NCBI GenBank assembly: GCA_963804995.1
Contig: CAWDSK010000006.1
Location: forward strand, 576,001 to 640,000
Length of the DNA: 64,000 bases
From: an uncultured Acidobacteriota bacterium
GTDB lineage: Bacteria; Acidobacteriota; Terriglobia; UBA7540
Reading direction: 5' to 3'
Part shown: piece after piece, positions 23,859 through 28,958 of the stretch
Numbering within the stretch: position 1 is the first letter of the stretch
Layout of the letters: each line of letters opens with the position of its first letter
Notes under the pieces: generated by a model
Seen by the model: only the letters and a program-made list of their open reading frames with translations
Databases searched by the model: none
What the model was told of the DNA's origin: nothing
Program-made: the position numbers and the translations under genes

Positions 23859-24241
23859 AAGGACGGGTCCTAATGCGGCGGATGCGCTACTCAGTTCGAG
23901 AGCGCCGCCGGTTGCGTAGGGGGGACGGGCCATAGGCGTTAAAATAAGCCCGACTGAAGGTGCATCGCATTCCTACGCGCTGGCTATTACTAGCCAGGTG
24001 ATTTGTTTCCGAGTGCCCGTCATCCGCCCGGAATGCGTAATTGTAACCAGACTCGTCGATAATCGCTAGCCGACCAGCGGGGATCTATTGCTTTTTCAGG
24101 ATACCTATACACGACCGCCCAATTTCCGATATGGCGACTTACCGTCAAAGTGAACTGCGATACGAAATCCCATGCCGCGCGTAGTCGTAGCATATCGTCC
24201 ACAACTTCTTCTTGCTGCGTTCCTCCCCACTTGTCTGGGCA

Positions 24242-24250
24242 TGCTATGAT
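24242..24250 (+). promoter_or_regulatory. Extended -10 promoter, probably giving a near-leaderless mRNA for the cassette gene
   Basis: TGCTATGAT 9 nt before ATG 24260; no SD present. Confidence 0.45.
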
Positions 24251-24259
24251 TTCGGTTAG

Positions 24260-27200
24260 ATGACAGAGAAATCCCAAGGGCCAGACTACCGGAAATTCAG
24301 GCCGTCCGAATTCATGAGGGCGCGACGACCCCACCTGTTCTCCGACAGCGAGGTGATCGAGCAGGCTCAGCTTGATCCTACGACCTTTGAATACCATCTC
24401 GACACGCTTACTTCCCGAAAGCAGGAACTCGATTTTGAAGGATTCGCCCGCAAGCTGGCTGAAAAAGAAATTTGCCCCAATATTCGACCCCAGACAGGAC
24501 CCACAGGGGGTGGCGATAGCAAGGTCGATTCCGAGACATACCCAGTCTCTCCAGAGATCTCGGATCGCCTGTACTACGCGGATCCAGAGGGCCGCGACGC
24601 TGCGAATGAACGATGGGCATTTGCGTTCAGCGCAAAGGAGGAGTGGCGAGCCAAGGCTATCTCCGACGTCAAGGCCATTGCCGGCACGGGACGGGGTTAT
24701 ACGAAGGCATTTTTTATCACCAGCCGGTTCGCCAAAGACAAGAATCGTGCTGATCTCGAAGACAAGCTCACCAAAGAATACGGGCTCGATGTGCGGATAC
24801 TCGACCGCACCTGGATTGTTACGAAGGTCTTTGAGAACGGGCGCGAAAGACTGGCAATAGAGAACCTAAAGTGTACCGTACCATTGGTTCCAACCCCGAA
24901 GAAAGGGCCGCGCGACCTATCGCGTGAGGCCGAACTGAAGGAACTCGAAGAGCAAATCACCGATCCCAGTCGCTATGTAGGGCTGAGCTACCAACTGGTT
25001 GAGGATGCGTTGCAGGCCGCGCTGCTTGCGCGTGGAATTGAGCTTCCTCGCGCGGAAGTGGAGGCTAAATTCGAGCGTGCGGTTCACCTCGCCGAGAAAC
25101 AAGGCATAAATCAGCAGCAGCTTCGCTGCGCATACAACAAGGCATGGACTTATTTTTGGTGGTATGAAGATTTTCCCTCCTTTATCGGGGCCTACGACAC
25201 CGTTGAGGCGCTTGCACGGGAAAGCTCTCAAGTATCTGATATTGAACTCCTCCAAAACCTGTGGGAACTCCTCTACGCTAGCGCAAAGACCGGAACGTGC
25301 GGTCCAGTCGATGCGCGAACTGATGAGCGCACGGCCACGTTGAGGTCAGCGCTTGAGGCTATTCTAGCGGACACGACACGGCCGAACGCGTCGCTGCGGG
25401 CGCGAGCGAGTCTGCTCCTAATGGATCTCTCGGTCGCCTACGATAAGCCCGAGAAGCTAAAGGAGGTATTTCGAGCGTTTCGCGGTGTTTTCGAAAAAAG
25501 TAAGGGGCTTATCGACTTCCCAGCGAAGCATTTCGTGAAACTGCTCATGGAATTGAGCGATCTTCTGCCTGACGATGAGGAATTCGATGTTACGTTCGAA
25601 TCGGCAATTGAAGTGGCACGCGAGCGCGAGAGCCAGACCGTTTCAGGACGAATGCTCCTCAGGCGGGGCCGCCAGAAACTACAGAGCGGAAAACCATATG
25701 AGGCCATCCGCCTGCTCGGCAGGGCCCAGCAGGATTTGGCGCTCGAGGAGGCTCGCGGAGAAATGGTTATGGCCCTCGGGCTGTGCGGGGCAGCTTACGA
25801 GACCGCAGGACTATTGTGGGCTGCTCGCGGCTGTTTGCTCCTGGCAGTCAATCAATCTCTGAAGGAATTTTGGGAGGAGGGGGAAATAGTTCGGCCCGCA
25901 CTCATCTGCCTGCGCAAAATCATCTGGCTCGAATTACAGCTGGGCCGTGTCCCATGTGTCCTTGCATGGGCCGAGAACTTCCTTATGATGAATAGCGCGA
26001 TCGAACATGATCCTGAAGCACAGAGGCAGCTAGCGGAGGAGTGGACCAATCTCGATGGCGTCCTCGGTCTTCTGCTCCTAAGGACGGACCTCAGAGACCT
26101 CAGGGATCTCGGGTCCCTTCCGACGGTGCTGGAGAAATTTCACCTGGACGGCTCCTGGATGGCTTTGCTTTATGCATTGGGCTATGAGGATAAGCTCCGT
26201 ACCGACAAGGTCATCCCGGTCGATGAGAGTCCAGGAAGCGTCGCAGCGTTCTTCGACAAGTGGTTAAGCCAACCGGCCGGAAACGACCTGCCCTCCGTCC
26301 CTGAATTCATTGACCGGCGTACGGTTGAACTGCGCTCAACTGTCTTAGGCTGTGAGATCCTCGCGACTGTCTCGAACAACAACGAATCGCTGTTCCTGGC
26401 CGAAGGGATACTGGCCGGCGTCGAATCATTTCTGGCGACGAGCTTGGATTTCGCGCTTGTGCCCCACGCTTCGCGCATACATCTCCGGGTCACTCCGTCC
26501 GATTTCCTGGATCAGGTGATCGAGTTCACCGTCAAGTCGGCTCCGCATACCATTATCGATGTCCAACACCGAAAGGACAGCTTGGCGGCCGCGGAGGTCA
26601 CTAGCGCTTTCAAAGACAAACTAGTAGAGATTATTAGCTGGGTCGCGGCACACATCGCGATACCAGCTGAGCCAAGTCTGAGGCATTTGGAGGTTCTAAT
26701 CAGGGACGAACGCGCGCTTGGCAGGGCCATTCTGATCGCCGGGATTGGGACCCTGATCGGTAACGCTTTGGGCGCTAAGCCTAAAATTCGCATTTCGGAC
26801 TGGACCTCGGCGGGAGACCAGGGCGAGAGCTTTCCCCTGCTTCGGACAGAGCCGTGGAGCCATGCGCGGCTGCTAGGCGACTCCGAAGCTGAGAGGGTGC
26901 CCCCGAGTCCTGGAGTTGGGGAGCCCCCGGCCGAACTGTTCAACGTGGAGAGCCTAAAGCATAGGGATCGAAGGGTGTTCTCCATTATCAACCTTGACCT
27001 CTGGGAAAAGGCTCGTTGGGCCGGTACGGGCTATATCTTCCCGATGGAGACAGACTCAGACGAACCGCCGTACCTGACCTTAATTTTCGAAAACCTCCCA
27101 GCCGCAGAGACTATCTTCCAGGGATGGTTGGAGGAGGTTGGTCCAAGAGATTCCAATGAGAGGATTAGGGTATCCATCATTACGGGGATCAGCATCGAAA

Positions 27201-27698
27201 ATCCTGCTCGCTACCGCGTGGTACTAGGATCAAACCCCGACTGGAGCACGATCGCCCCCATGAGCCATTTCGTCATGACATATCGTATTAACACGATGAA
27301 CCCGGCGACCTCGGCAAACTTAGATCGCTTCTTGGAAGCGTATAACGCCCAAAAAAAGTACATGCTCGTTCCAGGCGAGGCGGAGCCGAGCGGGATGGGG
27401 CGTATTGCGCCAGGGCTCGGAATCCTCAAGCACGAGTTGCTTGTCCGCCCAGCTTGGCAGATAGGCGAACATGACCCGGACATCTGCGGCATCGACCTGG
27501 ACGACAAGGTAATTATCCCAGACGGTGTTAAAGACGCTCCGGTTCTCGCAGCGATGGCGAGAAAAAAAGAGACTAGAAGCTGAACCCAATTCATGGCGAA
27601 CGGATGCCACGACTCTCAAACCTAATCGCAAGATGGGCCGAAATGAACTTTGCTACTGTGGAAGCGGCAAGAAATACAAGAAATGCCATGGAATATAG
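24260..27698 (+). CDS. Large cargo protein: Mrr-like restriction-endonuclease-fold N-terminus, helical/TPR-like middle, C-terminal SEC-C motif (ORF stops at 27583 as written; extends to 27698 across an A7 frameshift)
   Basis: [37 protein letters not shown] resembles the Mrr/PD-(D/E)xK layout; +1 frame after 27562-27568 reads ..[26 protein letters not shown]. Confidence 0.75.
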
Positions 27699-28103
27699 AG
27701 CTCGGCTTATCCACATTCACGCCGGTTCCGCTCGCTGGAACATACAGATCCCTAATGTTCACCGATAATTCTCGCATCGCTGATCTCTTTGCCCGCTGGT
27801 GCGGTCGAAATCAATCCACAATGACGTGTAACGGCCTATGCGCGGATGTGGCGCCCGCTGGTTCCGGGCGGATGGTCTGACGCTCGGAAACAATGAGAGC
27901 GCTCGCATTGATGCACAGCCGCCTACACGGGAAGTGCTGACATTCCGGAACATGGACTTCTTCTCGAAGCATGCACCTTGGTCCTGCCAGAACAGTGCGG
28001 CGCCTATTTTAACGCCTATGGGGGGACGGGCCCACTCGTCGGGCGGCAATGTGTCCCCTCACCCACCGTCACTGCGGCGATCATGGGCCGGAGATCTTAC
28101 CGC

Positions 28104-28836: not shown

Positions 28837-28958
28837 CTGGCGTAGTGTCCGGTAATTAACTGGATAACGTAGCGCCGCCATCTTGGCGGCAATTGCCGGC
28901 AGGATGCCGGCGCTACGGCTAGGACGATTGTCCAGCCATTTCCTGGACACTCCACTAG
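28837..28958. mobile_element. Degenerate MITE (CTAG-ended, IS630-like) carrying a GTAG-type REP doublet
   Basis: Imperfect 31-bp TIRs (22/31) ending GGACACTCCACTAG; internal GTAGCGCCGCCATCTTGGCGGC...GCCGGCAGGATGCCGGCGCTAC. Confidence 0.6.

Follow-up and report, generated by a model that had tools for sequence, protein, structure and literature searches.

Within a 64-kb window of the genome of an uncultured acidobacterium, we identified a cassette at positions 23920–28031 that we read as a three-layer element, in which a mobile transposon shell encloses a set of sites for module exchange and a probable defence gene. We put the probability of this reading at about 0.58. The window is the whole stretch of DNA analysed here (C6:576001–640000 of the source assembly G000, which comprises 7.55 Mb in nine contigs and is 92% complete), and coordinates given without a contig are positions in it. 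The element lies between a small membrane gene, on the sigma/membrane side, and tetR. A previous reading of this stretch, hereafter the sequence-only reading, had described the shell and overlooked the system of inner sites, the part of greater interest, as well as a +1 frameshift that separates a SEC-C motif from the cargo. The open literature, searched without ISfinder or most subscription papers, yielded no description of such cassettes in Acidobacteria or of this family of sites. The element contains the following features:

23920–23930, + strand: left target duplication, 11 bp (direct-repeat match; sister copies)
23931–23946, + strand: left terminal inverted repeat, 16 bp, an IS421/IS231-type CAT end (exact repeats in the genome; published consensus)
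23931–24034, + strand: left subterminal end, ~104 bp (74–83% identity with one class of sister-cassette ends)
24005–24034, + strand: outer left two-armed site, type B, inward-pointing (spacer ends CGT and has five bases instead of the usual six)
24122–24151, + strand: inner left two-armed site, type C (GAC class; TT follows the spacer GGCGAC)
24260–27583, + strand: cargo gene, 1107 aa (sole long open reading frame in the element)
27561–27698, + strand: continuation of the cargo in another frame, beyond an A7 run (SEC-C zinc motif at 27639–27692)
27818–27847, − strand: inner right two-armed site, type C, inward-pointing (spacer GGCCGT; CGT class)
27861–27891, − strand: outer right two-armed site, type B, inward-pointing (spacer TCAGAC; GAC class)
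27887–28020, − strand: right subterminal end, ~135 bp (~73% identity with the other class of sister ends)
28005–28020, − strand: right terminal inverted repeat, 16 bp (perfect match to the left repeat)
28021–28031, + strand: right target duplication, 11 bp (exact copy of the left duplication)

Judged by its sequence, the shell is almost certainly a real non-autonomous IS4-family cassette with IS421/IS231-type ends. The perfect 16-bp terminal repeats, the exact 11-bp direct repeat outside them, the single long gene and the lack of an internal transposase (zero IS4 transposase matches) were all confirmed as the sequence-only reading had given them. Local sequence alone would also be compatible with a 13-bp direct repeat and 15-bp ends; the CAT...ATG ends with 11-bp repeats were chosen because sister copies show them. 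The exact 16-bp end occurs ten times in the genome against 0.001 expected by chance, and an eleventh copy carries one mismatch. Four complete end pairs were resolved, all without a transposase and with cargo unrelated among them, alongside three orphan ends. The three sister cassettes lie at C3:136650–144217 (9-bp duplication), C3:837399–841240 (11-bp duplication) and C6:1929309–1932096 (11-bp duplication), and their cargo comprises a radical-SAM/XRE/CapP-like/papain operon, a BON-domain cluster and the gene pair HEC-01A/B (E 4e-154 and 1e-73). Behind the orphan ends lie a block with LexA-like, methylase and HNH genes and a PIN pair accompanied by a PDC-S11-like gene.

The exact end is also found beyond the source genome, in 12 of 28 genomes of the genus (none for a reversed control). 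A scan of a species-genome collection returned at least 114 stretches, among the matches listed being miniature inverted-repeat transposable elements (MITEs), additional cargo cassettes and autonomous elements of 1293–1374 bp, one of them from the same genus (L021 = G018:C24, with an exact-end transposase at G018:C24:455169–456472). The autonomous elements bear the identical 16 bp at either end and 11-bp duplications. These autonomous elements, together with the sister cassettes, support the earlier assignment to non-autonomous IS4-family cassettes. Their transposases score 115.4 and 105.2 bits against the IS4 profile NF033592 (cut-off 115), carry a YREK motif (L021/L172 and L038, the last with F for Y) and are 34–39% identical to that of IS421, which is also their best plasmid match (34%, tblastn). 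ISfinder files both IS421 and IS186 in the IS231 group. The left end fits the IS231-subgroup consensus CAT-------AA--TAA, a subgroup with 10–12-bp duplications (PMC2266710, Table 1, as far as that source was available), and in the right end the last position reads TAG. The earlier description of the ends as IS231-like thus holds for the consensus, which is what suggests subgroup membership, and the nearest named element is IS421 rather than the IS231 of Bacillus. The proposed GGG-N5-CCC target preference was not borne out, as it describes only 5 of 141 distinct flanks; the ends favour targets that are G/C-rich at both edges, with SSS-N5-SSS in 66 of the 141.

Overall GC is 55% in the element and 59–61% in its flanks. 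The claim that the cargo is rich in CTA, AGG and AGA codons is true (31.6 per 1000 codons against 3.1–26.3 in eight flanking genes) but modest, because tetR reaches 26.3 and GC at third codon positions differs only slightly (0.63 in the cargo gene, 0.69–0.74 in flanking genes). In 15 of 24 genus genomes, all from other species, the flank genes (sigma/membrane and tetR) stand 327–2098 bp apart without the cargo; removal of the element from the present locus would leave 321 bp.

Related ends were observed in several other settings. Repeated hairpins harbour many of the sister IS4 elements, and IS421-like elements and 92–93-bp MITEs at C2:95368, C2:410406, C5:237238, C5:647339, C2:726794 and C5:128438 occupy repeated hairpin families for which 23–104 matches span the rebuilt site, which suggests targeting of repeats. 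For the cassette's own site, targeting of repetitive extragenic palindromes was dropped, as the reconstructed target had only two spanning matches. A palindromic GTAG-type repeat lies beyond tetR (28868–28917) and has many copies in the source and related genomes. The orphan ends at C5:247302 and C6:1082498 are of opposite class and share a near-identical outer flank within a 240-bp repeat family on different contigs; they are possibly one cassette split through rearrangement or mis-assembly. Small Y1 (RAYT-like) transposase genes occur as cargo between IS4-type ends at C3:146805–147514 and in L050/L176. In three further exact-end cassettes, read by sequence inspection only, the cargo includes a KAP-type NTPase and an inserted insertion sequence (L039:2388–6829), a GHKL-like ATPase (L087:8001–13235) and an ABC-type ATPase (L171:244–6442).

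The cargo is a probable stand-alone, single-gene sensor-effector defence protein with a probable Mrr-like nuclease head. The model (pLDDT 87, a predicted score for the local distance difference test) shows an alpha/beta head, a TPR-like solenoid and alpha/beta C-terminal domains, which we assign to a probable Mrr-like PD-(D/E)xK domain (residues ~40–205), the solenoid (~215–680) and a C-terminal region of unknown fold. Across 111 sequences E56, E60, D86, D90, E92, W129, K132 and D136 are invariant and S124-x-K126 is near-invariant, and the order of helices and strands in the model fits the restriction-endonuclease core fold. In the Atlas the nearest named clusters of the head are Mrr_cat at 0.89–0.90, which we treat as a lead only, with a Cap4_nuclease neighbour besides. 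Homologues number 1094 among 8000 scored candidates (1173 representatives for the N-terminal profile), and those listed are named hypothetical, SEC-C or TPR only. Their occurrence is patchy (1 of 28 genus genomes, 5 of 400 class genomes); one homologue, 43% identical, is itself held by an exact-end cassette in Ca. Sulfopaludibacter. From these sequence data we consider an anti-phage nuclease a slightly better than even proposition.

A scaffold or adaptor of some other function is the main competing explanation for this protein, and we regard it as rather unlikely. Structure searches with the whole model recovered generic TPR folds only, and the defence libraries gave no match, both points in its favour. 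The invariant acidic and lysine residues in restriction-endonuclease-like order, the Mrr and Cap4 neighbours, the patchy distribution and the defence-type cargo of sister cassettes argue against it. Other searches with the cargo were negative: a single-sequence model of the N-terminus reached pLDDT 37, and the domain by itself yielded no structural match; profile searches of the PDB returned nothing or scored no better than chance; scans of 40, 7 and 30 homologues with Pfam turned up no family of nucleases above the cut-off; and viral contigs gave no match. The putative nuclease differs from Avs4- and Cap4-type nuclease-TPR effectors in being a single gene in which neither a STAND NTPase nor a SAVED domain was seen and the SEC-C motif is optional.

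That motif (Pfam E 5.5e-11) is placed out of frame by a +1 shift at the A7 run at 27562–27568. It is in frame in the four closest homologues (P0002–P0005, 80–88% identical) and present in 19 of 120 listed homologues. An assembly indel accounts for the shift no less readily than a real lesion does, because xerC of the source assembly is also frameshifted. No sequencing run matched more than 0.25 of the words searched for, none of the matching runs listed was of RNA, and no listed piece spans the A7 run or an element joint. The frameshifted xerC (C5:107476–108300), with dif missing from the assembly, suggests indel errors or a gap. A further homologue, P0233, begins with a fused HicB-like antitoxin domain at its N-terminus (Pfam E 1.3e-13).

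Between shell and cargo lie the two-armed sites, which, going by sequence comparison, are likely to be true recombination junctions. In six plus six pairs of sister ends, identity is 0.95–0.96 before and within an 11-bp arm, falls to 0.72 and 0.92 in the adjoining spacer, measures 0.47 and 0.36 over the 11 bp after that, and is 0.23–0.30 further in. The layout is 11-6-11, with the outer arm consensus ACTTCCYMGAA and a 6-bp spacer that, read inward, ends GAC or CGT; some inner arms measure 13–14 bp. Opposite ends of a cassette carry opposite spacer classes, an arrangement that recurs around the cargo in Bryobacteraceae cassettes and in those from elsewhere in the genus, where the site lies 75–79 bp from the terminus. 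Related site types are stacked 25–120 bp apart. The element under study reads, from left to right, B (CGT), C (GAC), gene, C (CGT), B (GAC), its two outer B sites together forming a 13-bp internal inverted repeat (I14). A contig of low depth aligns to the element only from 24134, inside the inner left site.

Scored with a matrix trained on the source genome only, at a threshold of at least 10 that we chose, the site was detected in other genomes at 7 of 13 cassette ends (a count in which one cassette row was mis-paired), 15 of the 60 unpaired ends, 2 of the 44 ends of MITEs and none of the 11 transposase ends, against 3 of 128 for the reversed control; most matches fell 75–79 bp from the terminus. 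The island at C3:567554–572379, with genes of 799 and 368 aa, has no insertion-sequence ends, which makes the site layer independent of the shell. It has the same B–C order on both sides, shares ~90 bp of the element's right array and includes its inner left C site, and its cargo is different. Further site-bounded islands or regions without IS4 ends were noted at C1:444998–451111, C3:1368033–1374010 and C5:406000–418853. A pattern search of 400 genomes of the phylum matched three others, none adjoining an insertion-sequence end.

A metagenome scan for one site returned at least 120 stretches, which gave 107 distinct loci with both flanks among the matches listed. Here a single upstream class, with 41 loci, meets 20 downstream classes, and a module carrying a recombinase and an IS91-family transposase joins four upstream classes. 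Pairs sharing an upstream class drop from an identity of 0.62–0.76 before the site to 0.23–0.34 after it, with breakpoints placed only within 19 bp because the set was selected by the site itself. The downstream-shared profile was not used because ~23 of the 107 loci trace to a chance match within a single coding gene.

These junctions bear on one alternative, in which the element is an ordinary mobile insertion cassette whose cargo was taken up through deletions and illegitimate joins, the inner motifs being IS91-type landing sites or scars. It has points in its favour: mobile insertion cassettes of IS231 are known to hold different passengers behind a conserved subterminal region (PMC6199540, in the part available), IS91 elements use short targets without duplication, and neither circles nor empty platforms were seen. 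We nevertheless judge it unlikely, since it would have to accommodate sister divergence that falls at the spacer at both ends, a site that marks the ends of cassettes but is missing from transposase ends, the many upstream and downstream classes that meet at one site, and opposite spacer classes around the cargo in independent genomes.

The two-armed sites led to a candidate enzyme. A 294-aa tyrosine recombinase gene starts ~110 bp inward of the site in the loci L199, L204 and L228, and an IS91-family transposase gene (NF033538, 426 bits) comes after it in L199 and L204. The same gene pair occurs in L343–L362, and these elements insert into the site family. The candidate scores 203 bits against the integron integrase profile TIGR02249, under its cut-off of 265, and is present in 14 of 28 genus genomes. 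IS91 recombinases are the closest homologues of IntI and lack the IntI insertion (bioRxiv 542381, as far as available). Of 22 recombinase-IS91 elements examined, two had no readable origin end. In all of the remaining 20 the right junction begins GAC or CGT, and in 13 the same five letters stand on both sides; those flanking one class, GAC-TT, are also found in the cassette's inner left site. Element removal rebuilds a site scoring 15–22 in 5 of the 20. Among 19 independently found cases a rebuilt site of at least 15 occurred in four, compared with 0.09% of 7511 background positions at a score of at least 10. In L018 a recombinase-IS91 element begins 165 bp inside an IS4-type end.

Co-location of recombinase and site, and the geometry of their junctions, can be read directly from these loci; that the IS91-linked recombinase also exchanges cargo is what we infer from them. 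Its identity as the enzyme acting on the sites is plausible, at slightly under even odds. In L343–L362 (from G018, G043, G013, G042, G015 and G003) an inverted copy of the left-end site, of the same spacer class as both outer junctions, lies ~110 bp inward of the origin end, and subgroups favour different arm types. G018 has 24 recombinase matches. Other candidates fared worse. A serine recombinase with a GT core was set aside, since GAC and CGT spacers behave as two distinct classes in the recombinase-IS91 elements. A small recombinase with a catalytic domain only (C4:157227), present in 3 of 28 genus genomes and with site-like matches near one of four loci, was unsupported. The source genome has 11 tyrosine recombinase matches, none in or beside the element, and no clear flanking site pair was seen around its other tyrosine recombinases.

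The same elements allow a different mechanism, in which the IS91 rolling-circle (Y2 HUH) transposase moves modules by starting and stopping at the GAC/CGT five-letter motifs, and the recombinase guides it or is irrelevant. Consistent with this, the five letters at the origin end behave as an IS91 target, and one-ended transposition can capture flanking DNA. The right end of the recombinase-IS91 element folds into a strong hairpin (z −3.8), whereas the five inner-site regions, folded on both strands with that end as control, range from −1.8 to +1.9, so that cargo modules lack the origin hairpin; by these folding scores, rather than an attC covariance model, no attC-like hairpin lies at the cargo border either. 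In addition, an 11-6-11 two-armed symmetry is typical of tyrosine recombinase sites. Rolling-circle movement of the cargo therefore seems improbable. Use of the inner sites by host XerC/XerD as pdif-like sites is more improbable still, and canonical dif was rejected as their identity, for despite the shared 11-6-11 geometry, an outer arm resembling the predicted Solibacter XerC arm and a module logic like that of Acinetobacter (PMC13141974, in part), the conserved XerD arm of the genus dif (TTATGTTAA) is absent from all inner sites and a scan of the source genome with published dif arms gave nothing above control. Most genus members have a dif site; none was found in the source assembly.

We propose the following model for the three-layer element. 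A DDE transposase supplied in trans would insert the cassette into a G/C-rich 11-bp target between the membrane gene and tetR. A tyrosine recombinase would swap modules at class-matched sites by two crossovers, as in the dif modules of Acinetobacter, so that one shell receives different cargo. The enzyme acting in trans may be the integron-integrase-like recombinase of IS91-family elements that insert into the same sites. The TPR solenoid of the cargo may sense a phage product and switch on the N-terminal Mrr-like nuclease.

A number of results weigh against this reading. For the shell, the autonomous partner that the sequence-only reading expected, alongside the sister cassettes that were indeed found, is present in other genomes only: the 92%-complete source assembly yielded no exact-end transposase, and no trans partner can be named because of this. 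The assembly does contain IS421-like transposases, eight copies in all and of three kinds, one of which accounts for six copies; their ends match at 13–14 of 16 positions. The empty site foreseen earlier was recovered as flank synteny without cargo, and not as the exact empty allele, which is absent from the four fully shown intergenic regions (L003, L008, L013 and L014), none with an end or target motif; nor was an excised circle or an empty platform seen. For the sites, the threshold chosen for the matrix and the 19-bp resolution of the metagenome breakpoints count here too, as do the element's own diverged sites (leave-one-out scores of 10.2 for outer right B and, with the A/B matrix, −1.6 for inner left C) and the five-base spacer of outer left B. 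Spacers inside one class often differ at several positions, and dif-module exchange requires near-identical spacers (PMC13141974, in the part available). For the enzyme, neither the recombinase nor the transposase of the recombinase-IS91 element was found in the source assembly, and 15 of its 20 targets have other arm types with low matrix scores, some of which also occur in stacked arrays. For the cargo, an Mrr_cat match appeared in only 1 of 40 homologues and was weak (E 0.011), and PADLOC 2.0, NCBIfam and Pfam gave no match above cut-off (for P0002, PADLOC recovered the SEC-C tail only). Five other homologues in the class have no insertion-sequence ends and no flanking site within 1.5 kb. 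One sister cassette holds non-defence genes, and the paper from which HEC-01 comes saw no protection by it (bioRxiv 2024.01.29.577857, as far as available).

Several known systems resemble parts of the element. MIC231 of the Bacillus cereus group likewise has two IS4-type CAT ends, no transposase, passenger genes, a 10–12-bp duplication, varied cargo behind conserved ends and an expected mobilisation in trans (PMC6199540; PMC2266710). The cassettes described here differ in their acidobacterial host, their length of 1.8–7.6 kb and their ends and transposases nearest IS421, and in the inward two-armed sites at the cargo borders, which are not described for MIC231 in the parts of those two papers available to us. 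The end shares the CATA-GCG-T-A--TAAG frame of IS421, and the exact-end transposases have the YREK motif. The G/C-clamped target resembles that of IS186, the cassette site being one base off GGGG-N6-CCCC (PMC5009759, in part). Both of these elements are autonomous, and the duplication here is 11 bp against a 6–7-bp duplicated core for IS186 (same source).

For the sites, the closest parallel is the plasmid dif modules of Acinetobacter, in which inverted 11-6-11 sites surround accessory genes, left and right spacers differ and single modules are replaced (PMC13141974, in part). In the present element there is no XerD arm, both arms belong to one family, spacer homology is confined to the last three letters, and several site types stand in tandem on a chromosomal transposon shell. 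Integrons offer a second parallel, since the candidate enzyme falls in an integron-like recombinase subgroup (bioRxiv 542381, in part), the platform is carried by a transposon, and the sites resemble a simple attI with a constant outer and a variable inner arm. Here, in contrast, the element has no intI and no attC hairpin at the cargo border, the sites at its two ends point inward, and GAC-TT or CGT-TT takes the place of G-TTRRRY as the crossover letters. IS91 elements with an upstream recombinase are not part of the cassette, and the targets here lack hairpins. The cargo borders thus act like pdif sites or a two-sided attI, but belong to neither class.

We tentatively suggest that soil Acidobacteria possess an undescribed gene-exchange system, in which an IS91-borne recombinase would swap modules at non-hairpin sites of two spacer classes, with IS4-type shells as mobile, reloadable platforms for mostly defence genes; we consider this possible, though distinctly less assured than the three-layer reading of the single element. 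The turnover of passengers behind the same mobile insertion cassette ends is unexplained in the available parts of PMC6199540 and PMC2266710, and here the putative exchange point is legible at base resolution. The cargo belongs to a family of 1,100-residue proteins with more than 1000 homologues and no Pfam, NCBIfam or PADLOC profile, and the sites can be used to search Acidobacteria for accessory modules, of which several look defence-like. No described role was found in the literature for IS91-linked recombinases, the closest relatives of IntI, and the sites would supply them with defined substrates. If the proposed system is true, it would give these recombinases a function and provide a model of an integron-like system without attC hairpins.

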